Shown: positions 18,301 through 53,273 of the stretch, piece after piece | Position numbering within the stretch: the stretch's first letter is position 1 | How the letters are laid out: each line of letters starts with the position of its first letter | Virus record (IMG/VR): IMGVR_UViG_3300027887_000002 | From: a virus | Direction: 5' to 3' (one strand) | DNA: 53,361 nucleotides | Notes under the pieces: generated by a model | The model's input: the letters and a program-made list of their open reading frames with translations, nothing else | Database searches by the model: none | What the model was told of the DNA's origin: nothing | Position numbers and translations under genes: made by a program

Positions 18301-18641
18301 CCAACGTGATGCAGTATGAGGCGCAGACTAAAGAAGCTGAATTGATGACCAAGATCAACCAGCTTGAGGCCGAGCGCAACAATCTCCTATTGGATAGGCT
18401 CCGTATCCTTGGCGAAAAGATTTTCGATACCGTATTAACGGGTGCCGTAAACGTCTTAATGCATTCTATTGGAATTGGTGGTGGTGGTGAATCTAATGGT
18501 CCATCTCTGCCTGTGCCAGAGCCAGTCCCAGAAAATCCGTTGACGTCTATCAATTTCTATGGTGATGTCTACGGTATGGAAGACTTCTCGCAGAAAGTTG
18601 ATTTGGCTGTTAGGGAGAATTCCCGCAGGAGGAGTGGATAA
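15330..18641 (+). CDS. tape measure protein
   Basis: 1103 aa with long helical/coiled-coil stretches. Central hydrophobic segments: ITAFLGAWAIRGTAVGIMWLVGQF and LALAPVIAIASVAFMGIYSFL. Position is after the chaperones. Confidence 0.85.
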   Translation: MINSTTGATMQVNVEITTVGAEHAHALLKKHMADLEALRQTEMRLQSGHPLAVWRANQDVAGQIQAAAASKAAFESFEKQRRSVLGITAAQKDAAEQAKLLAAVDPLNQWDKSFRKMVTVFQRVRDALLSFMVINMVSQGIQEFFTKLVQANAQIEMLDTRLARMNISAEGIKTLKDSIVQLTLQTPFVIKDFTDAAVQLEAFGISAEKNLKPISDWASAMGRDLADMTTAFSKIAIGSPRTTLLLTTRGIRKEEFDAELKVTHDRVLALSNVIEKKFSEMAKATSNTFLGMIANIQDAWFLLAKQIGGPLFEKMRSDVGRLFIGLKDALGGDVAGKGSLPIKILGETIGYLYSVIKMSLPMITAFLGAWAIRGTAVGIMWLVGQFQGMIRNVSTLGAAFTEAGQAIRGFGLMSQSARISLQSLYLALAPVIAIASVAFMGIYSFLGDMERAGVDSAAAIAALNDEMITTDGKIQALKVSIASMENATGGFFSKLWAGILDIASARGRAMHGGLPGQLEMMDILEKELAREKDILSVLQAQEEERKRMLRLTRESLSTVDALAISEMVKKKQGGEEVLEAAKKQVAAQLLDADKAYTNATKLANESDAKFKQRKEGLLDVLQTLRHLQKVFTEVSLGPEVLKGKVVTETLSNMDTIIKSISLGRDQALGAWKEILGDLPDEEKNKTKGKVEKDISAWFTKIAEMEARFASLSEGEPRYAERIKGNLAKMMIERVRALSTIGGAVGIKAYMNFITAAVSTYEELNKWLEAIARNDEKLQNAQRHRYDAEREAQEALLSAEKARIDYEYERSGRLEDVRAEKQMQLFKVTVLMKQAEMELAKAKDKVVNGAIAEAEKMAAVAEVQKSLNGLTKDYWDILKEIYALPSTDFVMAWEKAMKRLQDDINAFYDTLSDSLVSGLRDFAVGVIKDFVHLFSATDERTADLLAAQEELSQLQNDSKRNYVQVEKLRRSATETNEEYLSRMKMQEQLTNANVMQYEAQTKEAELMTKINQLEAERNNLLLDRLRILGEKIFDTVLTGAVNVLMHSIGIGGGGESNGPSLPVPEPVPENPLTSINFYGDVYGMEDFSQKVDLAVRENSRRRSG
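18413..18426. repeat. CGAAAA-GA-TTTTCG palindrome-arm copy
   Basis: cgaaaagattttcg inside the tape-measure gene. Arms are perfect with a 2-nt spacer. Confidence 0.8.
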
Positions 18642-19090
18642 TGGTTCTTCTGAACTCAAGGATCAGATTCTATGTCTGGTGCGACCTTTCCCAGACTACC
18701 GTGGATTACTGTCCAGACATATCTGATCTTCCGGAATACCCAAGAGACTCAGGAATCGACATATTTGCCGATCGCTATAAGAGTGTCTTTGGGAGCAACT
18801 ACTGGAACTACAGTCGGGGCGTGTCGAGCTACTGGAATATGAGTTGGGAGGATGTGTCGGATAACTGCCAAGCTACGATGGGTATGATTGTCGGGAGTCT
18901 ATCCCAGAGTTCCCCGCACATAGCTATCTGGCAGGGACCCGGGTTGCATAACATCACCCTTGGCTCCCTATTGTCTTTGACTGGAACCGAGTTGTGCGGA
19001 ACGTATTTCTGTGAGAATGACCAGTGGGCCCCAAAAGAACGTATATACGGCAACTGGGGATTTGATACCAAATTTAGGAGAGAGGCATGA
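18641..19090 (+). CDS. distal tail protein (putative)
   Basis: ATG overlaps the tape-measure stop. 149 aa. Assignment is positional. Confidence 0.45.
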   Translation: MVLLNSRIRFYVWCDLSQTTVDYCPDISDLPEYPRDSGIDIFADRYKSVFGSNYWNYSRGVSSYWNMSWEDVSDNCQATMGMIVGSLSQSSPHIAIWQGPGLHNITLGSLLSLTGTELCGTYFCENDQWAPKERIYGNWGFDTKFRREA

Positions 19091-19569
19091 ACAGCATAAT
19101 CAATTTCAACAACCCCATCAAGTACATGGTGGTTAGTCCAACCGGAGAGATTATCCAGAGGGGTCAGGTACAGAATGCTGTGGGTGCCAGACTGAAAGAT
19201 CAACTCTCCAGGGCTATGGGATTTTCCTATGGGACTCCTGCCGGGACGGTCCTTCAGATCACCGGGATGGGCTTCAGGACAGACGGGAGCGCGATTCTGG
19301 GTTCTTTCGCACAATGGTTCGCCGGGGCCACCTGCGCGGGAACGGTGTACAATACCGCTACCTACTCGAACTCCATTATGCTTGCCGGAACCTATACGGC
19401 GACAGCCAACGTGTCGGTGAAGAGTGCGATCTTATACTCCTTGGCGGCGAATCTGACGTCTCCATCTTTGGATGTAGGCTCTTTCTGTTACGCTTATTCG
19501 ACCCAATTCAATATGAGTTGCGGTTCCGGCGGTCTTATGATTATCCAATGGACGGTGAACGTATTATGA
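19087..19569 (+). CDS. tail/baseplate protein, unknown function
   Basis: ATGA-coupled. 160 aa. Confidence 0.45.
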   Translation: MNSIINFNNPIKYMVVSPTGEIIQRGQVQNAVGARLKDQLSRAMGFSYGTPAGTVLQITGMGFRTDGSAILGSFAQWFAGATCAGTVYNTATYSNSIMLAGTYTATANVSVKSAILYSLAANLTSPSLDVGSFCYAYSTQFNMSCGSGGLMIIQWTVNVL

Positions 19570-20423
19570 TTGGGACGGCCTTAGCATATACGTTGGCCTA
19601 TAGATTGGCTGGGAGTAGTTACAGGGGTGGATTTAACCAGGGTGGGCAGGGTTCGCAGAACATATACGGTGGAACGTCTATAGCTTGGGTGGGAGCCAAC
19701 GGGTACAGATTCGGTGGGACATTTTTTGAATATGGGGCTGGCTGGCACAGTGGGTTCGGCAGTCATCTTAGACTCATCCGTGCCACCATTGCTTCTGGAA
19801 CTAGTGCTGGGAGTTTCAATAGTTTCGCATTCTGTAGTGGTACCGATGTTCTGGCTTATTCAACATTTTCAAGTGTCTACTCCCCGTCGGCGACGTTAGT
19901 AGTAGATTGGACGTTATTCATGGGAACGATACGTCCTTTCTCTTGGGATGATTGGAGCGCCTTGGCGTCTGAGTTCATTATGATCTCGGCTCTCCGTCCT
20001 CCAAGTGGAGGATGTGGGTTCGCCTCGTTCACCTGTGCCAGTTTGTATGATGCGTTTAACACCACCCGGAACTTCATGGCGACGAAGGTTTCTGAGACCG
20101 TATTACTCAATACTGCAACCACCATATTCAGGGGGACTTGCCCATATAGTGGGTTTAATCTCGGTATGATCCGGTTGTATGCTCGTACCGCCAAAAACGA
20201 CGTTATGGCTATGGAGAATATGGTCTTCGAACATACCCGCTATTGGGAACAAGAACAGTTAAGAGGGACGTACGAATTTGGCAATATGGATATGATTACC
20301 ATAGAGAACGGGGATATTTGGGCTGGGACATATTACTGGCTCGTAGAGGGAGTGGTTGATAATGTCGACTGGAATGCAACAGTTTATCCGTTGGGTACAA
20401 TAGACCCAGCGGATAGACGGTAG
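19566..20423 (+). CDS. tail/baseplate protein, unknown function
   Basis: Internal ATG 19566 (MIGTALAY...) overlaps the upstream stop (ATGA). The longer ORF-track start at 19314 would overlap the previous gene by 256 nt. Confidence 0.45.
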   Translation: MIGTALAYTLAYRLAGSSYRGGFNQGGQGSQNIYGGTSIAWVGANGYRFGGTFFEYGAGWHSGFGSHLRLIRATIASGTSAGSFNSFAFCSGTDVLAYSTFSSVYSPSATLVVDWTLFMGTIRPFSWDDWSALASEFIMISALRPPSGGCGFASFTCASLYDAFNTTRNFMATKVSETVLLNTATTIFRGTCPYSGFNLGMIRLYARTAKNDVMAMENMVFEHTRYWEQEQLRGTYEFGNMDMITIENGDIWAGTYYWLVEGVVDNVDWNATVYPLGTIDPADRR

Positions 20424-20441
20424 ATATAATCCGGAGAATCA

Positions 20442-20753
20442 ATGGCCTTACTGCAACAATGGTGGAAATTTAGGGTTCCCATATCCGAAAAGTTTTCGGT
20501 TGGAATTATTACTCCATTTACCGATAGTGAGACGGTAAGTGAAACAATGGCGCACGGTATCTTACAGAGTTTTTCCGATTTTCCTTCTGTTGTTTCAGAT
20601 CCGCCATCATTGAATATACTTCAGGAAGAGATCACTCCGTACGACCAACCATTCGGTTTCGTGAGAGGAGCCCTCAAAACTTTGTGGATATCGGATGAAC
20701 GGTATTTCCCAACTCCGAGTATACCTAAAAAAATAGAGTTAGATAGGAGCTGA
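20442..20753 (+). CDS. hypothetical tail-module protein
   Basis: 103 aa ORF in the co-directional block. It contains palindrome copy 20486-20498. Confidence 0.4.
   Translation: MALLQQWWKFRVPISEKFSVGIITPFTDSETVSETMAHGILQSFSDFPSVVSDPPSLNILQEEITPYDQPFGFVRGALKTLWISDERYFPTPSIPKKIELDRS
20486..20498. repeat. CGAAAA-G-TTTTCG palindrome copy
   Basis: ccgaaaagttttcgg. The palindrome extends to 15 nt. Confidence 0.85.
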
Positions 20754-21530: not shown

Positions 21531-22156
21531 TAAGTCTTCTCCTTCTGGCTGGCACACTTCTAGCTCAGGATAGGGATGTACAAAATATCTACATCCATCA
21601 GAGACAGTTTATGGATTCCATAGCTATCCCAGCAATCCCTCCGGTTTCCGGTTCGGTTTCTGTGTTTAGCCGTGGGAAACTGGGACTCTTTATGATGTTT
21701 CCGGACGCTTCCGTGAAGAGGGTTGACTCTGTGGGGAGTGCCGCTTATGGAGATTCTGCCAGAATTGCCTATGAAGCCATGAGTATAAAGAACTATACCG
21801 TAGTGACTATGTGGCCTATGTTCGGAGGAGAGGCAGACTCAGCCTACATCACTACCAGCATCAAACTGGGAGGTGGAATTCAGCCTAGAAATGTGGTTAT
21901 AGACTCGATTAAGTACAGCGCCTTTGGTGGAAGTTGTAATGTTACCCCAAGTGTCAGGTATGGATATGACAGGTCGGCGTCTGGAACATCGGTGATTACC
22001 AGTCCTTCGGCCGTCACAAGTGTAACTACGCCCACGACTATATCGTCTTTTAATAATGCGACTGTTCCAGCAAATAACAATGTCTGGCTTGTTTTTACTG
22101 ACACAACGACTAAGCCGTGGCATTTGATGTGGACTGTGTACGGACACTACCAGTGA
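21506..22156 (+). CDS. signal-peptide-bearing protein; C-terminal domain paralogous to 24623-25066
   Basis: N-terminus MARRTHLLISLLLLAGTLLAQD. The C-terminal GIQPRNVVIDSIKY...NNNVWLVF...WTVYGHYQ aligns with GVQPTGVVIDSVHF...GNDVWITW...IIWGHLI. Confidence 0.55.
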   Translation: MARRTHLLISLLLLAGTLLAQDRDVQNIYIHQRQFMDSIAIPAIPPVSGSVSVFSRGKLGLFMMFPDASVKRVDSVGSAAYGDSARIAYEAMSIKNYTVVTMWPMFGGEADSAYITTSIKLGGGIQPRNVVIDSIKYSAFGGSCNVTPSVRYGYDRSASGTSVITSPSAVTSVTTPTTISSFNNATVPANNNVWLVFTDTTTKPWHLMWTVYGHYQ

Positions 22157-22881
22157 TACGAAAACTTTTCGTTCTATTACTTATCTGTGTTGGCGCCCAG
22201 GCCCAAGTGATGTACCCTTATGTGACCAAGAAGGCCAGCGCTGGTGGAGGTGGAGGTTCTCCTACCCCGTTCTATCTGGCTAACGCCACCATGGGAACAA
22301 CCGTGTCGGGTGGTACCAGTATGCAGATTACAGTATCTCTACCTTCTGGCTGTAACTATCTAAGGGTGGAGATGGGTGAGGCCAACGAATACTCTCGTTG
22401 TGACTCTGCGTATATCTGTAGCACGACCCCTGACGTTATTGGTGCAAGGATCGGCCTTAAAGACGCTGGGGGGACTAATCTAAACCAAGAGTCTTGGGGC
22501 ATACAGCGCTCGGATACTTCTGCCGCCTCTGTGGTTGTCCGCATACACATGACAGCCTCGATCGACTTCGCCGCAGGGGTAGTCCCGGTGGTGAAAGCAA
22601 ACTCTAGTGCGCCAGCAGGAACCTACAATGGGCAATCAAGTGCCGGGACCACTTCTCCGTCTTTCACTGTGGAGGCCGTTTCCGGAGATACGATTGTAGT
22701 CTCCACCCTTGAAGGGAACGTGACTGGAGGCTCTGTTACAAACATAGGCTCGGTATCAGACCTCAGTGGGTACCGTAGTTTCACAATTCTGAAAAAGGCT
22801 TACGTGGCGAACCCGACAACTGTTTCGTATGCCACATCCAATAGCCCCCTTAATGCCGGGGGAGCGGCGGTGAAACCATGA
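22153..22881 (+). CDS. signal-peptide-bearing protein, unknown function
   Basis: GTG 22153 overlaps the upstream TGA. Leader is (V/M)IRKLFVLLLICVGAQAQ. The leader codons carry palindrome 22159-22171. Confidence 0.5.
   Translation: MIRKLFVLLLICVGAQAQVMYPYVTKKASAGGGGGSPTPFYLANATMGTTVSGGTSMQITVSLPSGCNYLRVEMGEANEYSRCDSAYICSTTPDVIGARIGLKDAGGTNLNQESWGIQRSDTSAASVVVRIHMTASIDFAAGVVPVVKANSSAPAGTYNGQSSAGTTSPSFTVEAVSGDTIVVSTLEGNVTGGSVTNIGSVSDLSGYRSFTILKKAYVANPTTVSYATSNSPLNAGGAAVKP
22159..22171. repeat. CGAAAA-C-TTTTCG palindrome copy
   Basis: cgaaaacttttcg at codons 3-7 of gene 22153, read as RKLF. Confidence 0.85.
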
Positions 22882-24620
22882 TACGAAAACTCTTTGCGCT
22901 ATTCATACTCAGTACAAGTCTCAGTTTTGCTACTGACTATTATGTAAAGACCAACGGAAACGATGCGCTCTCCGGCACAAGTGTGGGGAACGCTTGGGCT
23001 ACCATCTCAAAAGCCAATAACACTCTTGTGGCTGGCGACAGAGTGCTCGTCTTAGGTGGAGAATATAGTGGTCAGATCAATCCGGTCAACAGTGGCTCCG
23101 CCGGAAACTATATCACTTATATAGCTTATGACGCCGCTTGGCGTCCTATTCTCCGTCCCGCTTCGGGCCCCTCGGCAAATCTTTCAGAGGACAGCTATAT
23201 CCGCGTAGAGGGCTTTGGGATGCCTAGGGGATTTGATATTTACAAGGGCAGTCACAACATCTTCCGTAACGACTCCTGTGCCTTCGACACGCAGGGTAAA
23301 ACGATATCGTATGGGGTAGGAGATTTAAACAATACCGCGTTTAATACCATTCGAAGGTGCTTTTTCAACGCGAATGATGGTATGTACGCAGAGTACGGGA
23401 GCCATGCTGGTGTCGCTATGTCCTCTGATGATATTGGCGGTGGGTGTTACGACAACCTCGTCGATAGCTGTATGAGTATCCAGAGTTCCGACATTGGGTA
23501 TTCTACATTCGGATGGCAGGGATTCAACCGTAATGTGTTCCGTGCCGATACCGCCATGTGGTGCCATACGGGATTTATGACTGAAGACGGTGTTAGCGCA
23601 CACAATTTTCTTATTGACCGTTGTGTTATTATCCAGTGTGGCATCAACTCAGCAGATAGACCAGCGTTTCCGGGATATCAGCTTAACGGGCACTCCTACG
23701 AGCTTCTCGGACAGGATCACCTTATCGTCCGATATAATGTCGCGATAAATGACACGAACCTCACGGGCAGTTACATTCCATCCCATATGTACTGGGATGA
23801 AATGGGTATTTCTCCAGATCTTGAGGGTGGGGTCGTCTGGGCGGACGCCACAAATTACTACGTTTACAACAATACGATATGGGGGCGGTGTGGGAACTCT
23901 CAAGAGCATTACATTGTACGTGTGGAAATTCCCGAGGCTGGTCAGGTCACTCAGAACATAAATGTCAAGAATAATATCTTTGCTCGGGAGACCAACTCGC
24001 CCACTATGGTCTACGAAGCCAACAGATACGGGTACGTAAACCAAACCGTAGACTTCGACAACCACTTCACAAACAACATATTCTATCGTACGTCCGGGAC
24101 TGGATCGGATGTTGGTGCGTACGAGGACGCTGGTGGGTATGTTGGGTCGTTCACAATTTCGGAATTGGAGTCATCGTATCCAGCTCGTTGGAGTAGTAAC
24201 ACCCTTGAGAATCCGGTTTTTGCGGACACTACTTCACGGGGTAGATGGATAAACTTGGGGTTACAGGCAAGTTCTCCCGCTATAGATGCTTCTGATCCAT
24301 TGACATATGCCAATGGAGGAGGTTCTGGAACGTCTCTTACTGTAGACGATGCCGGATATTTCTGGGGAGGGAACGAGTTGGTCCCTGCCGACTCCATAAT
24401 GATTGGTTCTGTGAAGCGGCAGATTAGTTCCATTAGTGGCAACGTGATAACCCTGACACAAACCGCCACATGGTCGGACAATACCCCAATATACTACTAT
24501 TCTTGGGATAAGTGGATCGGGAATTACCCAGATATCGGGGCTTTGGAATACGGAACACCCGCACCTCCAGCAGAGGGAGCCGAGCCAAGTATTCCAGGGA
24601 AAATGGTCATTGTGAGGTAA
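22878..24620 (+). CDS. right-handed parallel beta-helix (pectate-lyase fold) protein with signal-peptide-like leader; candidate polysaccharide depolymerase
   Basis: Leader MIRKLFALFILSTSLSFA. It is followed by TDYYVKTNGNDALSGTSVGNAWATISKA, a cap motif common in beta-helix proteins. Asn-ladder-like rungs recur (NIFRND, NTIRRC, NLVDSC, NVFRAD, NNTIWG, NNIFAR, NNIFYR). Confidence 0.65.
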   Translation: MIRKLFALFILSTSLSFATDYYVKTNGNDALSGTSVGNAWATISKANNTLVAGDRVLVLGGEYSGQINPVNSGSAGNYITYIAYDAAWRPILRPASGPSANLSEDSYIRVEGFGMPRGFDIYKGSHNIFRNDSCAFDTQGKTISYGVGDLNNTAFNTIRRCFFNANDGMYAEYGSHAGVAMSSDDIGGGCYDNLVDSCMSIQSSDIGYSTFGWQGFNRNVFRADTAMWCHTGFMTEDGVSAHNFLIDRCVIIQCGINSADRPAFPGYQLNGHSYELLGQDHLIVRYNVAINDTNLTGSYIPSHMYWDEMGISPDLEGGVVWADATNYYVYNNTIWGRCGNSQEHYIVRVEIPEAGQVTQNINVKNNIFARETNSPTMVYEANRYGYVNQTVDFDNHFTNNIFYRTSGTGSDVGAYEDAGGYVGSFTISELESSYPARWSSNTLENPVFADTTSRGRWINLGLQASSPAIDASDPLTYANGGGSGTSLTVDDAGYFWGGNELVPADSIMIGSVKRQISSISGNVITLTQTATWSDNTPIYYYSWDKWIGNYPDIGALEYGTPAPPAEGAEPSIPGKMVIVR

Positions 24621-24622
24621 CT

Positions 24623-25066
24623 ATGTTGCGAAAACTTTTCGTATTGTTGTTTATTCCCGTTCTGGCGATTGGGCAGACCAAGCTTAGTCATTCTACGGCT
24701 GGTCTAGATTCTGCGGCCTTTGGTTCAAAAGCATATTTCGCCTGTGGAGCAGATTCCGCTAACACCACTACTTGGGACAAGTTTCCCATGGGGGTTCAGC
24801 CGACTGGGGTGGTAATTGATAGCGTACATTTCATTTGTCTATATTCTACCACTCCAAACTTTACGCCCACCATTAGCTATGGGACGGACGTCAATGCTAC
24901 GGGAACAAGTCTGGGATCGTTCTCCTCCGTAGCGAGTTCACATGTCACTTCGGCGGTTGGGAAAGGAACAACCATTCCTGCGGGAAATGACGTCTGGATA
25001 ACCTGGGGAAGTATAACGACCCTGCCTCGGAGGTGGGCGGTGATTATCTGGGGACACCTGATATGA
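24623..25066 (+). CDS. signal-peptide-bearing small protein, paralog of the 21506-22156 C-terminal domain
   Basis: GAGG RBS 6 nt upstream of ATG 24623. Leader MLRKLFVLLFIPVLAIGQ carries palindrome 24629-24641. Confidence 0.55.
   Translation: MLRKLFVLLFIPVLAIGQTKLSHSTAGLDSAAFGSKAYFACGADSANTTTWDKFPMGVQPTGVVIDSVHFICLYSTTPNFTPTISYGTDVNATGTSLGSFSSVASSHVTSAVGKGTTIPAGNDVWITWGSITTLPRRWAVIIWGHLI
24629..24641. repeat. CGAAAA-C-TTTTCG palindrome copy
   Basis: cgaaaacttttcg at codons 3-7 of gene 24623, read as RKLF. Confidence 0.85.
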
Positions 25067-26340
25067 GACTACTTTTTTTGATGTTGTTATCTACGTCGGT
25101 TTATGCACAGTCGATATTTTACGGGTCATACCGAATCTCATCAGACCCAAATATTGTGCTTGTCGGCAGAGATAGTGCCAATATATTGTACGTAAACGAT
25201 AAGACCCTCACTACGTCTTTGAGTGGTTCAGACGGGAATAGGTATAGTCTGTTTTTTGTGGGAACCTATACGTCAGGGGCAAATTTTGTAGATTCTGTTA
25301 CTGTAGATAGCGTTGCTGGTGGTTCTATGAAAAAGGCTACACTTGTGGGTCGTACACAATATCCAGCGGGTGGGTTACAGGTTAATATTTACGGCATGAA
25401 GAACCTAAATAACGGGAGTCATACAGTGCACGCTTATGCGCCATCTCAAATGTACGGCGGGATGCTTGCGGCGGTTCATTTAGGCAATGTAGACCAAACA
25501 TTACCAATAGCAGAATATGCAGGGAACTATAATTATAGTGTTGTCCCCACTGTCATTGCTTCAAATCGACATAAACAGTGGCTCTTTGATTGCACGGTTA
25601 ACTCTGGTGGTCAGGGGAACATGGGGACGGCTGGACAAACTCTTGCCGCAAGTATTAGTAACAACGCAGACGGGGAGAACTGTGCGGTTGGGTGGGATTC
25701 AACCGTAGGATATATTTCCACTTGGGCATCCCTGGGTACGGCGAGTTGGGTTCTTGGGGCCGTCACCGTCAACCAGTATATGTCTGGAGATTCTTATGAT
25801 ACAGTATTAACAGAGGTGGACACTCAGTTAAGAGATGCGTATTGCGTTCTAAATTATACCTCAGCCACCGACAATGGTTATTTGCGCTGTGGTTCATATT
25901 TAAGTCAAGCGCGCGAGTGGGGTGCCGAGATGCCTCTGGCAATTCCTAAAGATGCCGATATTATCAATGCTGTTCTTATTTGTACAGTAAATGACAATAG
26001 CGGCTGGGGTGTTACGGATACAATGTCGGTAAGAGCTTTTGCTGTTGATAATGCCTCTGCTTTTGTTCACGGAGCATCAGAGTGGATACATGAACATCAT
26101 ACCCGAGGTACAGACTCAACATACTGGATAAGTCCAGACGGTTGGGCTGGAGATAGGGTTGAGCGCTCTTTTGATGCAAGTGCTCTTGTGCAAGCCGTCG
26201 TAAATCGTTCTGGATGGAGTTCTGGAAACTATATTGGATTTTGTGGAGTAGCGAAGACGTACGTAGACCCAAATTACATGGGGTTCAAGGACTATACTTC
26301 GGGATCGGGTAGGATGAAACTGCGAGTTGTTTACCACTAA
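25063..26340 (+). CDS. signal-peptide-bearing protein, unknown function (425 aa)
   Basis: ATG 25063 overlaps the upstream TGA (ATGA). Leader MRLLFLMLLSTSVYAQS. Confidence 0.5.
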   Translation: MRLLFLMLLSTSVYAQSIFYGSYRISSDPNIVLVGRDSANILYVNDKTLTTSLSGSDGNRYSLFFVGTYTSGANFVDSVTVDSVAGGSMKKATLVGRTQYPAGGLQVNIYGMKNLNNGSHTVHAYAPSQMYGGMLAAVHLGNVDQTLPIAEYAGNYNYSVVPTVIASNRHKQWLFDCTVNSGGQGNMGTAGQTLAASISNNADGENCAVGWDSTVGYISTWASLGTASWVLGAVTVNQYMSGDSYDTVLTEVDTQLRDAYCVLNYTSATDNGYLRCGSYLSQAREWGAEMPLAIPKDADIINAVLICTVNDNSGWGVTDTMSVRAFAVDNASAFVHGASEWIHEHHTRGTDSTYWISPDGWAGDRVERSFDASALVQAVVNRSGWSSGNYIGFCGVAKTYVDPNYMGFKDYTSGSGRMKLRVVYH

Positions 26341-29658: not shown

Positions 29659-29671
29659 CGAAAACTTTTCG
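29659..29671. repeat. CGAAAA-C-TTTTCG palindrome copy (intergenic)
   Basis: cgaaaacttttcg directly after an orphan ATG (29656). The 15-codon mini-ORF reads MRKLFGSISYTHKGY*. Confidence 0.85.
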
Positions 29672-39694: not shown

Positions 39695-39695
39695 T

Positions 39696-41154: not shown

Positions 41155-41170
41155 TATGTGTTTGCCCCTT

Positions 41171-43251: not shown

Positions 43252-43678
43252 CGTCTAGCTCCTTCCGACGTTTCACCTCTCCAGAAGCTATGATATACTG
43301 TATCTTTTCCAGCTCCTCGATATGATCCATCCTTTTCATGTATAGTTCTTGTCCCTTGACGAAATATGGGATTATCTCTTTTACTGCAGGATCTTCTCGA
43401 ATTGCCCTGTCTGCACCCATGGTTCCATTTTTTGAGACCGAATACATGACACTACCGACCTTGATATAATCTTTCACTGGTGGTACTATTACTCTGTTTC
43501 TGTCGATGGTATCGCAGTATCCTACCTGATCCCTCCAAGTCTGATCTGTCGCGGATTCCGGAGCATAAATATGCGACTTGAATGGTCTCATTATGCAGAA
43601 AATCTTCACAATATCTGCAACAGAGAAGTTGCCCTTGACAAGCCTTTTAGTTAGCTTTTTCAAACTCTTCGATGTCAT
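43232..43678 (-). CDS. hypothetical protein of the amidoligase module
   Basis: 148 aa. Ends overlap the neighbouring genes. Confidence 0.45.
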   Translation of the reverse strand: MTSKSLKKLTKRLVKGNFSVADIVKIFCIMRPFKSHIYAPESATDQTWRDQVGYCDTIDRNRVIVPPVKDYIKVGSVMYSVSKNGTMGADRAIREDPAVKEIIPYFVKGQELYMKRMDHIEELEKIQYIIASGEVKRRKELDDAGIKQ

Positions 43679-44372
43679 GTGACTCTCTGATTATGAGTTC
43701 TTCGACTAATCTTGCCCTTTCGAATAGCTTTTCTGTTTTCTCGTACAAAGCAATCAATGGTTGCATAGCTTCCATTGGAACTTTGTCTGAGTAGGTGACT
43801 GTTTGCCGTGGCGCTACTTGCATATTCATAATTGACTGCGCCAGAGAATACTTGATCTTGTCTACTGTAACCGTTTTGTAATCGGTAAGGCTACACCCCC
43901 AAAATCTAGCAAATTCATGCATCAGTTTTGCCATATCCAAGGTAGTGTAATATCCTACCGTTTCTTTTTCCTTTGGCTCCTCTGATGTTGTTATTCCAAG
44001 GATTTTATTGACTTCCTTTTCTGATTCTTTAGGGTCTACTTTCCTCAAGAATCCAGACTCATTGACAAGATGATGGTGTCCATCTCCATTCCTACATTCC
44101 TCACAGCACTCCGCAAATGCGTATGTGTATATGCCTACATGGTTCTGATCCGATGCGAAAACAGTATTCGATAAAGTTTCTTTTAGAGACACACTTACTA
44201 CGTGAAGCAATGTACCCAAGGGAAATATACGCCCGTCCGGTGTCCTGAGAGGACGCTTCAGCGAATCCGTGACAATGACTAGATCGCCTGGTTCAAAGCT
44301 AGCGGCTCGTACCGTCATCCTTCGCCTCCGAAATCGTACCAGAGCCAGAATTTTCGATAGTGCCTTTTCCAT
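43647..44372 (-). CDS. hypothetical protein of the amidoligase module
   Basis: 241 aa. Contains a Cys/His patch (ECCEECRNGDGHHH). Confidence 0.45.
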   Translation of the reverse strand: MEKALSKILALVRFRRRRMTVRAASFEPGDLVIVTDSLKRPLRTPDGRIFPLGTLLHVVSVSLKETLSNTVFASDQNHVGIYTYAFAECCEECRNGDGHHHLVNESGFLRKVDPKESEKEVNKILGITTSEEPKEKETVGYYTTLDMAKLMHEFARFWGCSLTDYKTVTVDKIKYSLAQSIMNMQVAPRQTVTYSDKVPMEAMQPLIALYEKTEKLFERARLVEELIIRESHDIEEFEKAN

Positions 44373-44382
44373 CGTTTTTTAC

Positions 44383-45243
44383 TCAACGTCTCCTCCATCT
44401 GTGATTGATGATTGCTCGTGCATATGCTTCGAGTCCACGTTCTGTGTCGATGGCTGGAGCTGTATTGACTTCCCATACTATGGATTTTCGTTTCCCATTC
44501 CTATCCCTTTCATCGAGACTGCTAATATCCACAGCCCCAAAATCAAGTCCTAGAGCTTCGATTGCTTCGAGAGAGTTCTTGATTACGCTTGGCGGTACTG
44601 CCCTTTGATGGTTGTTTACAGAGATAAACTTGTACCCATGGGAGTAATTCCTGACCATTTCCCGTGTTTCTTCGAGTATATCTCTGTCTGCGTTTGAGAT
44701 ACTGCGCTCGTCACATATCCTGTTGAATAACTCTGGATCAAACACCTTCTTTTGGACGAATAGCACTTTACCGTCAAAGACATGGACTCGATACTCTTTG
44801 TGGGTAGGGACATACTCTACTGCGTAGTTCCACTTCATTCGCGACCAGTGATCCAGCCCATTGACTATCCTGATATCTTCCCCTCTGGTATGATGGAACT
44901 TTCTCAGGAAGAATATCTGGTTGGTTATTGCCCCACGATGTCTTGCTTCGTCTACGTGCTCTCTTGGATAGAATGGTGGTACTGGAATGCTCTCACCATC
45001 TAAGACGCACAGTGTTTCGTACTTGTTTTGAGCCATTTGCATGGAGTGTAGGGGCTGGAGAATATCCCCCTCATCGAATACTCCAGGGATAATACCGCTG
45101 TATCCCCATCTGATAACTGGGCTGTATGCTGATGCCCTTTCTGGGCTAATCCCGTAGTGTACGCCGTGGGGACGTAATTCGATGAGCTTACCACCTAGCT
45201 TTCTGCCTGTTGGCTTGCAACTGGAGTGATATAGGAGAAACAC
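44383..45243 (-). CDS. ATP-grasp ligase (RimK-like)
   Basis: KEYRVHVFDGKVLFVQKKV, GYKF and LGLDFGAVDIS...IVWEVNTAPAI match the ATP-grasp C-terminal half. GTG start. Confidence 0.75.
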   Translation of the reverse strand: MFLLYHSSCKPTGRKLGGKLIELRPHGVHYGISPERASAYSPVIRWGYSGIIPGVFDEGDILQPLHSMQMAQNKYETLCVLDGESIPVPPFYPREHVDEARHRGAITNQIFFLRKFHHTRGEDIRIVNGLDHWSRMKWNYAVEYVPTHKEYRVHVFDGKVLFVQKKVFDPELFNRICDERSISNADRDILEETREMVRNYSHGYKFISVNNHQRAVPPSVIKNSLEAIEALGLDFGAVDISSLDERDRNGKRKSIVWEVNTAPAIDTERGLEAYARAIINHRWRRR

Positions 45244-46218: not shown

Positions 46219-46231
46219 CGAAAACTTTTCG
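46219..46231. repeat. CGAAAA-C-TTTTCG palindrome copy (intergenic)
   Basis: ggcgaaaacttttcgcc, a 17-nt extended palindrome, 29 nt upstream of ATG 46190 (minus strand). Confidence 0.85.
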
Positions 46232-46858: not shown

Positions 46859-47056
46859 TCAAAGTGCTCTGGCAAGCTCCAAGAGAGACTCTGCACCGTC
46901 TATCACGGTCTGCTTGCGTCGAGCAAGTTTCTCGCCAGTAATACCTGCTTTAAGTGCTGTAAAGTAGGCACCAAGGTCATTGCGGAGGGTAAACTGCATC
47001 TCTGCAATAGGTGTACCTTGTCCTGGTCTGGGAGGTCGTTCTGCTCTTTCAGCCAC
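46859..47056 (-). CDS. hypothetical protein
   Basis: 65 aa ORF, co-oriented. Confidence 0.35.
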   Translation of the reverse strand: MAERAERPPRPGQGTPIAEMQFTLRNDLGAYFTALKAGITGEKLARRKQTVIDGAESLLELARAL

Positions 47057-47212: not shown

Positions 47213-47278
47213 GGGGCAGAGTAGGGATTGAACCTACATTGACCGATTTTCTCGGGGTCTTACTTAGACGATCTGCCC
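47213..47278 (-). ncRNA. tRNA-like element with truncated anticodon arm
   Basis: Minus strand: acceptor GGGCAGA/TCTGCCC (7 bp), D-arm GTCT-AAGTA-AGAC, T-arm GTAGG-TTCAATC-CCTAC. The anticodon arm is only CCGA-GAAAA-TCGG (13 nt instead of 17). It starts 6 nt after the stop of gene 47285-47521. Confidence 0.5.
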
Positions 47279-47284: not shown

Positions 47285-47521
47285 CTAGAGTAATACTACT
47301 GCTTTCTCGACTTGGTCGAATAGGGCTTTACTAGCCTCTTTCCGCATAGTTCCAATATAGGACACGCAGGAAGCAAAGCTAAAGCCTACAGTGGCAGTAA
47401 TACTACCGTCCTCTTCTTCGGCTATCTTCCTAAGAACCACGCCCTTACTGATTGTAGCTGACTTCCTATCGGTAAGGGTGCGATAATAGGGAGACCGCCT
47501 AGAAATGCTGACGGTTTCCAT
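47285..47521 (-). CDS. hypothetical protein (first gene of a leftward unit)
   Basis: 78 aa. Lies downstream of the divergent promoter region. Confidence 0.45.
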   Translation of the reverse strand: METVSISRRSPYYRTLTDRKSATISKGVVLRKIAEEEDGSITATVGFSFASCVSYIGTMRKEASKALFDQVEKAVVLL

Positions 47522-47611
47522 GATTTTGTACCATTGGTGGTTACTATGGGTTAGATCGAAAGGGCGAATTTAGGGCTAGAGAGACATATGACATATCTGT
47601 CGTATAGCGAA

Positions 47612-47641
47612 AAGCTATTCGTCAAAAATGTCATACGTCAA
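47612..47641 (-). promoter_or_regulatory. candidate leftward sigma70-type promoter (TTGACG-18-TAGCTT)
   Basis: Read on the minus strand. The -10 lies inside the near-palindrome CGAATAGCTTTTCG (47608-47621). Confidence 0.3.
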
Positions 47642-47766
47642 ATATGTCACATGACAAATATGGCATATCTGATAACTCATTTTTTCTCTTCCCTTTTTTA
47701 TTCTCCCCCTCATAGGTTATCAGATGCCAGCAAGAAAAGTCAAGCATATTTTTCTTCTTTTTTTTC

Positions 47767-47795
47767 TTGACATTGATATGAGATAAATGTATAAT
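47767..47795 (+). promoter_or_regulatory. consensus sigma70 promoter (TTGACA-17 nt-TATAAT)
   Basis: TTGACA 47767-47772, 17-nt spacer, TATAAT 47790-47795. Both hexamers match the consensus perfectly. Confidence 0.7.
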
Positions 47796-47859: not shown

Positions 47860-47873
47860 CGAAAAGCTTTTCG
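47860..47873. repeat. CGAAAA-GC-TTTTCG perfect 14-nt palindrome (intergenic)
   Basis: cgaaaagcttttcg, located between the two rightward promoters. Confidence 0.85.
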
Positions 47874-47922: not shown

Positions 47923-47951
47923 TTGACAGAACGAAAATTTTTCGCTATTGT
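47923..47951 (+). promoter_or_regulatory. sigma70-type promoter (TTGACA-17 nt-TATTGT) with the palindrome in its spacer
   Basis: TTGACA 47923-47928 (a second TTGACA is at 47914-47919). The 17-nt spacer contains CGAAAATTTTTCG (47932-47944). TATTGT is at 47946-47951. Confidence 0.55.
47932..47944. repeat. CGAAAA-T-TTTTCG palindrome copy (operator-like position)
   Basis: cgaaaatttttcg inside the promoter spacer, 60 nt upstream of ATG 48004. Confidence 0.85.
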
Positions 47952-48003: not shown

Positions 48004-49089
48004 ATGGAAAAACGAACCGCAATCGAAAAGACGGAAATTGATTTTTCCGCATATATGAAAACCGAACCGATGGACGAAGCAAGAAGGTTATTAAAAAGAA
48101 AGGGGATGGAATCAAAGCAGAAAGCCTGCGACATCATAGGGGAAGCTTTGACAGGGAACCCGATGAGCTATCGAACATATATGAGGCACAAGAAAACCGG
48201 AAAAGCTGTGCAATCAATCACAAGGGTTATTTTTGTCAAGAAGGCAAACAAAGCAGATTTTTCAAAGCTTGTTTCAACCTATTTCTTTGAAGAGAAAGTG
48301 ATGCCAAAAGTCACAAAGCTAAACGAGATTGACAGCGTATGTGAGGAAAAGCTAGGCGAAACAAAAAAAGCATATGTAGAAATAAACGAAGAAGTCAAAA
48401 AGCTTTTCGCGAAAGAAATGAGCGAAGCAATCAAAAAAGACAAAGGGGAAACAATCACAAAGAAAAGCAAGTTAAGCAGAAAAGCTTTTCGCAATGAACA
48501 AGGTGAATATATAACCCCTTTATATGAAGTAGTAACAAAGCCACAAAGCATAACAAGCAAGGAATCAATCATAGAAAAATATGATGCAATGGAGAAGGAT
48601 AGAAAGAGAGAAGCAAAAAAGGAAAATAAGGCGATTGAGCATATCAAGGTAGAAGTCAAGCGGAATGTGGACATTGAACGCATAACAAAAACAGTAACAA
48701 ACTATATATATTCCCTATATTATCAAATGCGTGATGACATAGGAAGCAGATTTTCAACAAAAAGCTTTTCGCATATGGCTAGGTTCTCTCCTCAAGATAT
48801 TATTTCAGCAACATTAGAACAAGCATGGCTCGAATATATGGAGAAAGGGGAATTGCCTAGCATTCAATGGCTAATGTTAACAGCAAAGAATATGTTTATG
48901 AGGGAATATACAGTCAATAGAAAATTCTCCCCCTTAGAAATTCAAGCATTTGATGTTGACAGTTTAGAACAAGGCGATATGTGGAGCGAAGAAAGGGAAG
49001 TAGAAAGTAGTGAGCTTATATCAGATTACGGTATCAATGAAAGGGCTATTATATTTAGTGCATTGCAATGTATGCCGTGGAATAGATAA
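48004..49089 (+). CDS. Lys/Glu-rich 361-aa protein; possible DNA-binding / sigma-like regulator
   Basis: AT-rich gene with its own promoters and terminator. The C-terminal DIISATLEQAWLEY....IQWLMLTAKNMFMREY loosely resembles sigma-70/ECF region 2. The gene contains three half or near copies of the palindrome (48397, 48478, 48759). Confidence 0.5.
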   Translation: MEKRTAIEKTEIDFSAYMKTEPMDEARRLLKRKGMESKQKACDIIGEALTGNPMSYRTYMRHKKTGKAVQSITRVIFVKKANKADFSKLVSTYFFEEKVMPKVTKLNEIDSVCEEKLGETKKAYVEINEEVKKLFAKEMSEAIKKDKGETITKKSKLSRKAFRNEQGEYITPLYEVVTKPQSITSKESIIEKYDAMEKDRKREAKKENKAIEHIKVEVKRNVDIERITKTVTNYIYSLYYQMRDDIGSRFSTKSFSHMARFSPQDIISATLEQAWLEYMEKGELPSIQWLMLTAKNMFMREYTVNRKFSPLEIQAFDVDSLEQGDMWSEEREVESSELISDYGINERAIIFSALQCMPWNR

Positions 49090-49101
49090 ATAACTTTTCA
49101 A

Positions 49102-49130
49102 CCCCTTGTCGATACGGCAAGGGGTTTTTT
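49102..49130 (+). terminator. rho-independent terminator
   Basis: CCCCTTG (49102-49108), 9-nt loop, CAAGGGG (49118-49124), then TTTTTT (49125-49130). It lies 12 nt after the stop of gene 48004-49089. Confidence 0.8.
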
Positions 49131-49268
49131 ATGTGCGTCAGGCTGGGGTTACTCCCCCTTTTTGCCACACCCTGATTTTCTCGTATACGAAGAACCTTTT
49201 CGTAATTATCCGAAAATCCCGGGAAAACACTTTTAGGAAAGGACCCATCCTCAAAAAATACGAAAAAT

Positions 49269-49484
49269 TTACGTATTACGTACGAGGGATCTTACCAGGT
49301 CTTTGCGTTCTCTTAGGAAGTCATTTACGGTGTCTGTGTGGGTGCGCCAGTGTTCGTCGATGATGCCCCAGTCCTGAAGGTAGTCATTGTAGGCGTTCAG
49401 GAGGGCTCTCGCAGTCAAGATATCCTGGGATTTCGACGTATCTATAACATCTTGGGCATATGTCGAGGATTCGCTTCTTTCCAT
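49269..49484 (-). CDS. hypothetical protein
   Basis: 71 aa ORF downstream of the tRNA on the minus strand. Confidence 0.4.
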   Translation of the reverse strand: MERSESSTYAQDVIDTSKSQDILTARALLNAYNDYLQDWGIIDEHWRTHTDTVNDFLRERKDLVRSLVRNT

Positions 49485-49561
49485 GGATTTCGTGTCTAAG
49501 ATGGGAGTAAGAGAAGAATTTGTGGCATTTGTCGCATATGTAGCCCGAGAGCTTTCTCATG

Positions 49562-49633
49562 TAGCGGGGGTGGGATTCGAACCCACGACCTCCTGGTTAT
49601 GAGCCAGACGAGATACCACTTCTCCACCCCGCA
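49562..49633 (-). tRNA. tRNA-Met (anticodon CAT), initiator-type
   Basis: Full cloverleaf. Acceptor GCGGGG/CCCCGC with an unpaired U1xU72. D-arm GAGA-AGTGGTA-TCTC (A11:U24). Anticodon arm TCTGG-CTCATAA-CCAGG. Variable loop AGGTC. T-arm GTGGG-TTCGAAT-CCCAC. Discriminator A. No encoded CCA. Close to the E. coli tRNA-fMet sequence as I recall it. Confidence 0.85.
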
Positions 49634-50033: not shown

Positions 50034-50941
50034 ACCGTCTCCTTTTTTTGACACACTCTATGCAACTGTAGTCCGGGTGAGCTCCCGACAACCCCAGGTG
50101 GTCGCCCCGGTTACGCCACCTGTGCTTCCAAAACTCCGTCTCGTACTTGTATCTCCTGCAGGTCGAGCATTGGTACAGCATGAGACCCTGAGAATCCCTC
50201 TTTACCTTCCTGTATTTCTTGCGCGCGACTCGCCTTCCGAGCGAACCATTCCTGTCGCTGACGCAATCGAGACAACTTGCGCTGTACCTCCCGTCCTTCC
50301 GCAGTTTGAAATTTTCTATAGGGATGTATATTCCACAGCTCGCACACAGCTTTGAGACTATCAACCCCCGTCGCATTTTTAATATCGTCGAAGACCTTGG
50401 AATCCGGGGGATATACCTTCCGAGCGTATCGTACAGACCGCCACTTAAAGCCTCTAAGGTTGAAACATGGCCTGCAGACCCTGAGAATGGCCCGCTTTCC
50501 ACTCTTGAGGTGGGATTGGACGCACTCCCTGACGGGAATATCTTTGTGACAGTCTGTGCATTCAAGTGCCTTGACTCCTCCTACTCGCTTTATCATCATT
50601 TCTATGGTCTGACGGGGCTTCTTACCAGAGGCTCGACGCTTCTGCTCCATTCTCTCAGCCTGAAATTCACAGTGACAGTGCTTGCAAAGCCTGGAAAAGC
50701 CTAAAATGAGCGTCTTTCCGTCTTTTTTGAACTCCCCAACTTCCCTCAGCCGCTCAAAACTGGTAGTGTCTCGGTATTTTGGGTGAAAAAGGGCGATTTC
50801 TTTCCATGTCTGACACTTTGTACAGAATCGGAAGGTCACAATCCCGTTCCGGATACGTATATTGTCGTTCCTGCCCTTATCCGAAGACAACCAGGCGTAC
50901 CTACCATCACTACAGGGAAAGATCTCACCCTTTGCACTCAT
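50030..50941 (-). pseudogene. four-repeat CxxC...CxxC zinc-ribbon protein split across two reading frames
   Basis: Frame A (50941 -> about 50350) carries CTKC..CKHC and CTDC..CRPC units. Frame B (about 50400 -> 50030) carries CASC..CLDC and CSTC..CIEC units of the same C-x2-C-x(8-12)-F...C-x2-C type. The junction needs a +1 shift. Confidence 0.5.
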
Positions 50942-51126: not shown

Positions 51127-51135
51127 TCGTCCTCC

Positions 51136-52303: not shown

Positions 52304-52458
52304 AGTAGAATGTTTTAGTTAAGAGAAAAAGAAGCCCCCCAGAAGAAATACTCTTCATTATTTATTTGCTCGAACCAAGCGTCTTGTGAACGCAAGTCTG
52401 GCGCAGAGCGCAGTAAGATCATAATACACACTAAGCGATAGTTGTACCCCGAGTCATC

Positions 52459-52493
52459 TGACACCCCTTGGGCACGACCGTCCGGTATAATAC
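52459..52493 (+). promoter_or_regulatory. late promoter-like tripartite motif, copy C (TGACAC-N7-GCACGAC-N7-TATAATAC)
   Basis: TGACAC 52459-52464, GCACGAC 52472-52478, TATAAT 52486-52491. It lies 31 nt upstream of ATG 52525 in the divergent intergenic region. Confidence 0.55.
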
Positions 52494-52524
52494 GCTCTGC
52501 AGTTCGACCAGATCGAAGAAAACA

Positions 52525-52749
52525 ATGAAAATTCTCGAGTTTTTGCAGGAATCCAACGGCCAGCTCTCTTCGTCAAGACTTTTTGCGTTGATCGTGACCT
52601 TGTGTTTCTGCGCCGACTGGGTTGTTCACATCATCAATCAGCAGATGTACGATCCGACTCTGACCATCGTTGGAATCGTTATTGGTATTAACGGCCTGAA
52701 AGTGGCCCAGAAACCCTTCGAGGAAAAACCCTTAGAGGCGGCGAAGTGA
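52525..52749 (+). CDS. holin-like two-TM protein
   Basis: Internal ATG 52525. Translation: MKILEFLQESNGQLSSSRLFALIVTLCFCADWVVHII...LTIVGIVIGINGL, with a charged C-terminus. First gene of the lysis cassette. Confidence 0.5.
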   Translation: MKILEFLQESNGQLSSSRLFALIVTLCFCADWVVHIINQQMYDPTLTIVGIVIGINGLKVAQKPFEEKPLEAAK

Positions 52750-53273
52750 AAGAGTTGTTATACGCACTACTTTTCGTTTTCGCTGGTTTTGCCCTGTGTT
52801 ATTTCCTTTTTCCGCAGGACAGGGAAGTAATCGTCGAAAAACCTGTTATTGTCGACCTTACTCAGCATCAGATCGACTCACTCGAACTTGCTTTTCGTAT
52901 AAAGGTCAAGGGAGAGATGAAAACGAAAATTTTTCGCTATGAGGATTCAGCGACAGTATCCAGGCTTAAAAAGACGTTGGACTCCCTCAAAGAAGAGCTC
53001 TTCTGGAGTTTGAAACCCGGAGAGTTGCCGAGCGAGATGCAACTAGAGTATCATACGGATTCCCTTGGTTTTTATCGTGACACCTTGGATGTGATAGCTA
53101 GCTTCGTAACCGACACTATTTCGGTGCATTTTCAACCCAGAAATAGACAGTGGGAGCAAACACACGTTGATACGGTAGCCATTGTTGCCAGTAGAGGCGC
53201 ATTCGAATTCGATTTCAAGGATGTTGCTGAAATCGTTTTGACTGCCGTATTAGTAGGAGTGATCGTAAAATGA
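52746..53273 (+). CDS. membrane protein with N- and C-terminal hydrophobic segments (candidate unimolecular spanin)
   Basis: N-terminal LLYALLFVFAGFALCYFLF (contains a Cys) and C-terminal IVLTAVLVGVIV. ATGA/GTGA coupling on both sides. Contains palindrome 52924-52936. Confidence 0.45.
   Translation: MKELLYALLFVFAGFALCYFLFPQDREVIVEKPVIVDLTQHQIDSLELAFRIKVKGEMKTKIFRYEDSATVSRLKKTLDSLKEELFWSLKPGELPSEMQLEYHTDSLGFYRDTLDVIASFVTDTISVHFQPRNRQWEQTHVDTVAIVASRGAFEFDFKDVAEIVLTAVLVGVIVK
52924..52936. repeat. CGAAAA-T-TTTTCG palindrome copy
   Basis: cgaaaatttttcg inside gene 52746-53273, read as TKIFRY. Confidence 0.85.

Follow-up and report, generated by a model that had tools for sequence, protein, structure and literature searches.

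An uncultivated, siphophage-like virus (IMG/VR record IMGVR_UViG_3300027887_000002) carries eleven perfect copies of the palindrome CGAAAA-N(1-2)-TTTTCG, which are dispersed over its coding and intergenic DNA. The window analyzed here is the whole stretch of 53,361 nucleotides. The palindrome is extremely enriched, its copies are independent of one another, selection acts on its nucleotides as such, it is conserved in the clade, and it overlaps a promoter in two phages. As the best single explanation, we tentatively propose that the palindrome is recognized by a sequence-specific DNA-binding protein with two-fold symmetry, which is probably a product of the phage and controls transcription.

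Copies, enrichment and constraint of the palindrome

Nine perfect copies have a spacer of one nucleotide (20486, 22159, 24629, 29659, 36723, 42287, 46219, 47932 and 52924), and two have a spacer of two nucleotides (18413 and 47860). All eleven had been located in a preliminary description of the sequence and were recovered at the same coordinates. The over-representation claimed there holds against shuffled and Markov genomes: 100 dinucleotide-preserving shuffles contained no perfect copy, and Markov models of order 1–5 predict 0.005–0.023 copies per spacer class, or ~0.01 against the 11 observed. Among all inverted repeats with 5- or 6-nt arms and spacers of 0–6 nt, the palindrome is the only enriched one, the runner-up having two copies. 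The 60-nt flanks of the sites are at most 43% identical to one another (mean 30%), and the copies are therefore independent sites rather than parts of longer duplicated segments, which the first description had named as grounds for refutation. The tally in the window is 11 perfect copies, one relaxed copy and nine listed near copies, seven of which deviate at one position; one-mismatch copies with the same N1 or N2 spacer number eight. Isolated half-sites (CGAAAA or TTTTCG) number 50 over the whole window versus ~26 expected, about double. Seven of the 11 perfect copies are intragenic and four are intergenic. The sites are listed below; P1 and P2 are the promoter-like sequences in front of gene 48004–49089.

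18413–18426: perfect 14-bp copy, CGAAAA-GA-TTTTCG; 3´ part of the tape-measure gene 15330–18641 (read as EKIF); TATTAA 6 nt downstream
20486–20498: perfect 13-bp copy; 44 nt into the open reading frame (ORF) 20442–20753 (EKFS); TATTAC 8 nt downstream
22159–22171: perfect; codons 3–7 (RKLF) of the signal-peptide gene 22153–22881; TATTAC 3 nt downstream
24629–24641: perfect; codons 3–7 (RKLF) of the signal-peptide gene 24623–25066; TATTGT abutting
29659–29671: perfect, intergenic; followed by N4-TATTTCA-N10-AAAGGAT-N7-ATG, with the start near 29705
36723–36735: perfect; 375 nt into the DnaB-like helicase gene 35869–37110 (minus strand); TATATC 1 nt downstream on the sense (minus) strand
42287–42299: perfect; 557 nt into the COOH-NH2 ligase gene 41171–42856 (minus strand)
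46219–46231: perfect, intergenic; 29 nt upstream of the ATG at 46190 (minus strand); followed in the sense direction by N2-TATTTCA-N10-AAAGGAT-N4-ATG
47860–47873: perfect 14-bp copy, CGAAAA-GC-TTTTCG; between P1 and P2, ~58 nt downstream of the P1 start
47932–47944: perfect; fills the 17-nt spacer of P2 (TTGACA-17-TATTGT), an operator position
52924–52936: perfect; 178 nt into gene 52746–53273 (KIFR); TATGAG 1 nt downstream
750–763: relaxed copy, CGAAAT-AG-ATTTCG; 44 nt into the TerS-like gene 706–1662
10693–10705: one mismatch, CGAAAACTTTTCC (RKLFP); 48 nt into the GT2-like gene 10645–11394
22884–22896: degenerate, CGAAAACTCTTTG; codons 3–7 (RKLF) of gene 22878–24620
47608–47621: one mismatch, CGAAAAGCTATTCG, amid ATGTCA/TGACAT repeats; upstream of the leftward gene 47285–47521
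48396–48771: near copies AAAAGCTTTTCGC at 48396, 48478 and 48758; inside the plus-strand gene 48004–49089
49261–49273: one mismatch, CGAAAA-A-TTTACG; past the terminator of the plus-strand gene; TATTAC abutting

Near copies had been reported at seven places. Those at 10693, 47608, 48396, 48478, 48758 and 49261 indeed carry one mismatch, while 22884 carries two, and two of the positions had been given one base too high (48397 and 48759). The preliminary description also placed copies over codons 3–7 of signal-peptide genes, which is correct for 22159, 24629 and the near copy 22884 and incorrect for 29659. The latter site is intergenic because the MRKLFG ORF that opens at the ATG 29656 ends after 15 codons; it lies 32 nt past the stop codon of 28914–29627 and ~46 nt ahead of the likely start at 29705. 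The sites at 22884 and 22159 encode the same peptide with different Leu and Phe codons. Site 47608 is followed by CTATACG on the minus sense strand, and 47860 is flanked by ATGCCA on one side and by N3-TATTAG on the other.

The coding copies separate the demands of DNA from those of protein. They are read in three frames and on both strands, the peptides RKLF, EKFS, EKIF and KIFR having been assigned correctly from the start. RKLF is over-represented in the window proteome (five copies), and four of the five have the spelling CGA-AAA-CTT-TTC, which begins with the least used of the Arg codons (CGA, 10%) and has a chance of ~0.007 per RKLF peptide. Both xE[KN]FS peptides and the sole [STPA]KxFR peptide of the window are palindrome-encoded. 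The three AAAAGCTTTTCGC near copies in gene 48004–49089 are likewise read in three different frames (KKLFA, RKAFR and TKSFS). In four relatives of the phage (L006, L008, L036 and L117), the GT9 gene carries a site 148 nt from its start that is written with identical synonymous codons, xCG AAA TTA TTT CGy, and the neighboring codons vary freely across these four phages. The sequence-based case for selection at the DNA level is thus strong: the constraint acts on the nucleotide sequence and not on the protein, and the codon test in the window and the GT9 codons of the four relatives bear out the earlier claim of conservation at this level.

It is hardly credible that the motif lacks a function of its own and merely follows from paralogous signal peptides or from K-x-F-R-type peptides. 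Such an origin would suit the three adjacent genes that begin with M-x-RKLF, as well as the TerS-like gene of the relatives, in which the motif appears only where the codons chosen for a conserved AKKFR peptide happen to spell it. It does not account for the four intergenic sites, the three frames and two strands, the unrelated flanks or the codon choice, which is far from usage; the over-representation of the peptide RKLF itself also speaks against it.

To compare the phage with its relatives, TerL-flanking loci were collected from metagenomes; the close set comprises eleven loci with a TerL identity of 61–68% and a total of 147.5 kb. L006 (with three copies in 21 kb), L117 and L148 contain the strict motif as well. 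Relaxed to CGAAA-N3-TTTCG, the palindrome has 18 copies in the 147.5 kb, in 10 of the 11 close relatives, where the next palindrome has four, and no copy in 1.16 Mb of 97 distant relatives. The relaxed palindrome (CGAAA-N3/4-TTTCG) is, at the level of sequence, a hallmark of the clade. Its preferred form differs, with CGAAAT-N-ATTTCG in the relatives versus CGAAAA-N-TTTTCG in the window, and its density is 12 copies in 53 kb in the window, seven in 21 kb in L006 and four in 20 kb in L117. Thus the motif is conserved in related phages, clade-wide in the relaxed form and with its promoter overlap repeated in L006. As a negative control, IMG/VR loci were picked for carrying one GCGAAAANTTTTCGC: among the matches listed (1.0 Mb), 114 of 119 had no second copy, and the remaining five GCGAAAANTTTTCGC loci had one further relaxed copy each, so that none was motif-rich.

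Two genes suggest that sites turn over within the same gene. In the GT2-like gene, the perfect site of L006 (L006:19241) lies eight codons away from the window near copy at 10693 and in another frame. In the 175-amino acid (aa) gene, the sites at 52924 and at L005:8134 occupy different codons and frames. The replication-module relatives L115 and L116 contain no motif. A literature search for dispersed phage palindromes returned nothing specific. The palindromes of L095, a distant TerL relative, were rejected as an analogue: six copies of TGTTAACA-N-TGTTAACA lie within 230 bp at 7630–7870 and form a local operator or iteron array, in contrast to a dispersed motif.

Promoter overlap, site anatomy and direction

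The region of the divergent early units contains the following features.

47767–47795, plus strand: P1, promoter-like, perfect TTGACA-17-TATAAT
47923–47951, plus strand: P2, promoter-like, TTGACA-17-TATTGT, with site 47932 in its spacer
48004–49089, plus strand: divergent early gene, 361 aa, with a terminator at 49100–49126
46859–47056, minus strand: gene of a 65-aa protein with an ERxPRPGxGT arm and a predicted helical hairpin; a speculative candidate binder

Inspection of this region upheld the promoter-spacer position of 47932, the position of 47860 between two promoters and that of 46219 at 29 nt before an ATG. The same arrangement as at 47932 occurs in L006, where a perfect site (L006:2643) overlaps TTGCGA-16-TATTGT in front of the positional homologue of the plus-strand gene. 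Half-sites and near sites cluster at 47.6–49.3 kb; the bin of 48–50 kb holds eight isolated half-sites (48024–49261) versus ~1 expected. A separate set of ATGTCA/TGACAT repeats, with the inverted pair TGTCA-CA-TGACA, is located at 47588–47770, between the divergent early units, and adjoins a tract rich in pyrimidines and in A+T; these repeats possibly represent a second set of operators or an origin of replication.

The clade consensus is R-CGAAA-WNW-TTTCG-Y, where R is a purine, Y a pyrimidine and W is A or T. Positions 6 and 8 are complementary in all nine 13-mers of the window and in 9 of 15 independent sites of the relatives (P = 0.004), and the flanking bases continue the symmetry, with R at −1 in 24 of 25 sites and Y at +1 in 21 of 25. 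As RNA, the 13-mer would fold with −0.7 kcal/mol (range of the sites −0.7 to −1.5 kcal/mol), no better than shuffles. The palindrome has no stable G+C-rich stem followed by a U tract, and the terminator at 49100–49126 looks quite different. The symmetry beyond the 5-bp stem and the marginal stability of the RNA hairpin both favor the view that a protein with two-fold symmetry recognizes the site as duplex DNA.

The weakness of the hairpin agrees with the initial judgment that a role in RNA is unlikely. In such a role, a 5-bp stem with a 3–4-nt loop would be bound by a protein of the phage, such as a translational repressor or the cold-shock-domain protein conserved in the clade, which would control how mRNAs are translated or processed close to gene starts. 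In its favor, the clade consensus corresponds exactly to a 5-bp arm with N3 or N4, the loop is variable in length and sequence, and the spacer variants would be harmless to a hairpin. The sites are also 5´-proximal and co-oriented with transcription, two of them lie over codons 3–7, and every clade member has a cold-shock-domain gene. We nevertheless regard RNA-level control as improbable, since the free hairpin has only marginal stability, the complementarity of positions 6 and 8 is constant in the window although these bases could not pair in a triloop, many sites lie 150–560 nt inside genes and are thus too far for initiation, and the cold-shock-domain gene is also present in relatives with few or no sites.

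The surroundings of the sites are less symmetric than the sites themselves. At 8 of the 11 window sites, a TATT lies 0–8 nt past the palindrome in the sense direction of the local genes, and at none does it lie on the other side (0 of 11); with a background of 4.7%, this corresponds to P = 3e-9 for a pattern that was spotted post hoc. This asymmetry links the sites to transcriptional direction. It is not clearly present in L006 and L117, whose TA flanks are symmetric. Sites 29659 and 46219 share the pattern palindrome-N2-4-TATTTCA-N10-AAAGGAT-N4-7-ATG. Intragenic sites across the clade fall within the first 35% of the gene in 15 of 17 independent cases (P ~9e-6, with the 35% threshold set after the data were seen). 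A scan of the tail region for promoters and terminators gave counts at background level, none coinciding with the sites.

The main competing explanation, a possible though unlikely one, makes the palindrome a positive element: together with a downstream TATTNN it would form middle or late promoters that lack a −35 element, activated by a palindrome-binding activator or read by RNA polymerase carrying a phage sigma-like early protein, the product of 48004–49089. The sense-strand TATT speaks for such promoters, the common pattern at 29659 and 46219 is plausible as a promoter plus a short leader, and a block in the protein family of the plus-strand gene resembles sigma70 region 2 (SigL, E = 0.048). 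However, the distance between palindrome and TATT ranges over 0–11 nt, which gives no fixed promoter geometry, and the sixth position of the '−10' hexamer is T in only two of eight TATTNN sequences. The transcript start implied for 22159 and 24629 would be intragenic, past the start codon, and the intragenic sites are 5´-proximal, whereas promoters for the next gene are expected to be 3´-proximal. P2 is a good sigma70 promoter with the site in its spacer, the position of a repressor. Adding a fifth homologue weakened the sigma similarity (E = 1.5), hhalign gave it a probability of 23%, and the TATT orientation was not reproduced in L006 or L117.

A related idea, which we regard as rather unlikely, is that the palindrome and the co-oriented TATT constitute a new modular transcription signal at gene 5´ ends, where a phage factor on the palindrome would capture RNA polymerase at the neighboring −10-like element. 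The module could be a −35-less promoter for which the sigma2-like early protein, an ORFan, is used, or else a site of sigma-dependent pausing at which an elongation modifier is loaded. If this were true, about a dozen modules within coding sequence would program the late and replication operons.

Candidate binding proteins and proposed mechanism

Several observations weigh against a symmetric operator bound by a phage protein. Scans of ~60 ORFs of the window against Pfam, PHROGs and NCBIfam, which could miss remote homologues, revealed no recognizable DNA-binding domain; by the same scans, with the same reservation as to remote homologues, there is no helix-turn-helix (HTH) protein, immunity repressor or integrase, and a stoperator-like lysogeny function is therefore unlikely. 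L117 has a homologue of the plus-strand gene with no site at its promoter. A −35 hexamer is found at 47932 and weakly at 47860 alone, and most dispersed sites do not overlap a recognizable sigma70 promoter. The sense-oriented TATT is not predicted by a plain symmetric operator and points to promoter or pause elements; the bias of intragenic sites to gene 5´ ends is not predicted by it either. The spacers that are one base longer (18413, 47860, 750 and L006:7752) are awkward for a rigid dimer, and the 14-bp variants with their extra central base would imply some flexibility in the binding protein. The density is uneven among equally distant relatives, with no copies in 9–16 kb of L147, L150 and L007. 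Finally, some copies in the relatives are codon by-products of the conserved AKKFR peptide, so that not every copy is selected.

A dimeric phage regulator, as first proposed, is in keeping with the two-fold symmetry of the site at positions 6 and 8 and in the R/Y flanks; the search for its binder yielded candidates and no identification. The proteins named at the outset, from 48004–49089, 706–1662 and the zinc-ribbon genes, contain no detectable DNA-binding domain. The 361-aa product of 48004–49089 is an ORFan and has no Pfam match; its homologues in L006, L117 and L038 are recognized by position and evolve fast. A block at its C-terminus weakly resembles sigma70 region 2. With profile A2 of this family, the sole match in the PDB was region 2 of the extracytoplasmic function sigma factor SigL (E = 0.048), which weakened to E = 1.5 once the fifth homologue (L038) was added, and hhalign assigned a probability of 23%. 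No sigma region 4 was found in the protein, and its AlphaFold2 (AF2) model, with a pLDDT (predicted local distance difference test) score of 47, was too poor for a structure search. L038 contains a homologue of the gene, yet it has one site in 10 kb, and the co-occurrence of gene and motif density is not clean.

The 65-aa protein is common only to L006 and the window and combines a basic ERxPRPGxGT arm with a helical hairpin that AF2 modeled confidently; structural matches were generic and non-significant. An Arc-like ribbon-helix-helix fold was considered for this protein and rejected (hhalign 0.25%; helical hairpin in the AF2 model). The small genes that adjoin the promoter, 47285–47521 and 46859–47056, have no family match. 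On the minus strand, 50111–50941 encodes a basic 276-aa protein with two CxxC...CxxC zinc-ribbon units and no family match, which is kept in L005, L007, L031 and L038. The 361-aa, 65-aa and 276-aa proteins are candidate binders.

It is distinctly unlikely that the site belongs to the host instead, in the sense that a global regulator or nucleoid protein of the host genus binds it and was recruited by the phage clade. A host factor would fit the failure to recognize a phage DNA-binding protein, and a motif common to phages with otherwise almost unrelated early regions is expected under a shared host. Against it, a search of 185,579 species genomes turned up no close relative, the density differs widely among the relatives, and the inner bases differ (A-N-T in the window, T-N-A in the relatives), which looks more like co-evolution with a phage-specific factor.

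We consider it quite improbable that the palindrome is the target of an enzyme or of recombination, such as a nickase or nuclease (e.g., the DUF968 HNH-like protein), a methyltransferase, or homology for Erf-like annealing in module shuffling. The specificity is sharp, with 11 perfect copies versus only eight one-mismatch copies that have the same N1 or N2 spacer, the phage encodes Erf-like, DUF968 (HNH-like) and exonuclease-like proteins, and several sites are located at gene boundaries of variable tail genes. Enzyme targets are, however, normally avoided in phage genomes, whereas this palindrome is enriched, and a dimeric nuclease acting on it would cleave the genome at 11 places. Neither a methyltransferase nor a restriction enzyme turned up in the window, a match of 13 bp is short for recombination, and the overlap with a promoter in two phages would be left unexplained. 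No mosaic breakpoints could be mapped because two contigs from other samples (L001 and L002) are 100% identical to the window. The roles in nicking, methylation, recombination or marking module boundaries that the first description had offered gained no support.

In the dispersed-operator mechanism that we favor, the regulator would repress the strongly promoted divergent early gene 48004–49089. We infer repression because the site lies in the promoter spacer in two phages. Site 47932 would act from the −35/−10 spacer of P2, which it fills, and site 47860 from the transcribed leader of P1, and the eight weaker or half sites clustered in and around the gene may contribute. The other copies, just upstream of genes or in their first third on both genome arms, could be secondary operators or roadblocks that tune or time transcription, like the stoperators of mycobacteriophages or the KorB operators of plasmids. 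In the phage of the window, the dispersed sites may also cooperate with the co-oriented, −10-like TATT.

Genome setting and known operator systems

The window is a complete genome of ~53,262 bp. Nucleotides 1–99 and 53263–53361 are the same bases, and the genome is circular, circularly permuted or terminally redundant, because the identical contigs L001 and L002 from two other samples bridge these ends. Genes for packaging, head, glycosyltransferases and tail occupy the plus strand from ~52.5 kb through the origin to 33.8 kb. The arm for early functions and replication (33.8–47.5 kb) points leftward; among its products are a DnaB-like helicase, an Erf-like protein, a glutamine amidotransferase and three COOH-NH2 ligases. 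It is followed by a single rightward gene, 48004–49089, with its two sigma70-type promoters and strong terminator, and by a second leftward block at 49.3–52.3 kb. A nucleotide search of INPHARED with the window gave no match among cultured phages; the TerL is only ~24% identical to its counterparts in known phages, proteins of Bacillus phages. The search of the 185,579 species genomes for a host returned only distant TerL relatives in assorted metagenome-assembled genomes. Single-protein scans of IMG/VR with TerL and with the 361-aa protein returned no matches, and a homologue search with the tail protein 19314–20423 found none.

Several further features of the genome were recorded. The early operon 38915–45243 (minus strand) contains the COOH-NH2 ligase/ATP-grasp genes 38915–39694 and 41171–42856 and the RimK-like gene 44383–45243; the class-II glutamine amidotransferase 40177–41154 accompanies these three ligase genes in a phiEco32-like cassette that is common to L115, L116 and a 56.7-kb JGI contig. 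The cold-shock-domain gene (4912–5184) lies directly 3´ of the portal gene, and a GT9/GT1/GT2 glycosyltransferase block (7481–11394) lies within the head module; both are kept in every clade member, and the relatives add methyltransferases to the block. Four successive tail-region proteins at 22153–26340 (starts at 22153, 22878, 24623 and ~25063) have Sec-type signal peptides, in which M-x-RKLF/RLLF is followed by a hydrophobic run ending in AQ; this is unusual for virion proteins. The only tRNA reported by ARAGORN is a tRNA-Met (49561–49633). A tRNA-like gene on the minus strand (47213–47278), missed by ARAGORN, scores 37.1 bits against the Rfam tRNA model (gathering threshold 29) with permissive filters, and the ~1.1 kb around it (46.23–47.29 kb) are ORF-poor, G+C-rich and structured-looking. 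The HindIII site AAGCTT has 25 copies over the whole window versus ~13 expected.

Among known systems, the closest in logic are by analogy the stoperators of Cluster A mycobacteriophages, bound by the L5 gp71-type repressor, and the closest in geometry are the KorB operators OB of the IncP-1 plasmid RK2. Like the palindrome, stoperators are 13-bp sites that recur over a siphophage genome of ~50 kb, at an early promoter and far from promoters, and the palindrome may share their directional relation to transcription. Stoperators are asymmetric and bound by a monomer with two domains, whereas the window site is a perfect palindrome with symmetric R/Y flanks. Their directionality is in the site itself, whereas that of the window would lie in the flanking TATT (co-oriented with transcription at 8 of 11 sites), which is not clear in L006 or L117. 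They lie in short intergenic spaces of temperate phages with more than 20 copies genome-wide, compared with 11 perfect, one relaxed and nine near copies in the window, one of which fills a promoter spacer and seven of the 11 perfect ones intragenic. Their binder is an HTH immunity repressor, and no repressor or integrase was found in the Pfam, PHROGs and NCBIfam scans of the window. The sites of the Cluster A phage L5 were proposed to stop both initiation and elongation (PMC9283540).

Like the window site, the OB operators, which are bound by the ParB-family protein KorB, are 13-bp palindromes of 6-1-6 geometry, and they too are scattered over a replicon of about this size. RK2 has about a dozen OB sites on ~60 kb, some of them at promoters. 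The sequence differs, the carrier is a plasmid and not a phage, and no ParB/KorB-like, KorA-like or partition protein was detected among the scanned ORFs of the window. The OB core is TTTAGCGGCTAAA, and some OB sites are distal from their target promoters, with KorB acting over a long range (PMC11790492).

Two other systems are less similar. The cI-Cro operators of lambda, P22 and 434 are likewise palindromes in the core of a sigma70 early promoter within a divergent regulatory region (compare 47932, 47860 and 47608), with uncontacted, A/T-rich central bases. They are confined to the immunity region, whereas the window copies are mostly dispersed in structural and replication genes, and no HTH protein was found in the scans of the window. 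The hairpin promoters of the phage N4 virion RNA polymerase and the boxB-type hairpins of lambda have stems of 5–7 bp and loops of 3–5 nt that are recognized by protein. Their arm and loop sizes match those of the palindrome; the window hairpin, in contrast, is very weak, its symmetry runs into the would-be loop, and no N4-like RNA polymerase gene or N-like protein was seen in the window.

The palindrome lacks defining features of both the stoperators and the OB operators and is thus best classed with the 'dispersed operator' kind, as a member of neither family. If the copies are dispersed operators, genome-wide control by operators would have evolved in tailed phages a second time, independently of the Cluster A mycobacteriophages. 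This case would differ from the first in that the site is palindromic, most copies reside in coding sequence at the cost of rare codons, and no lysogeny module is visible. The general kind is already known; the 13-mer offers a precise and testable way into a clade of environmental phages that otherwise defies annotation.

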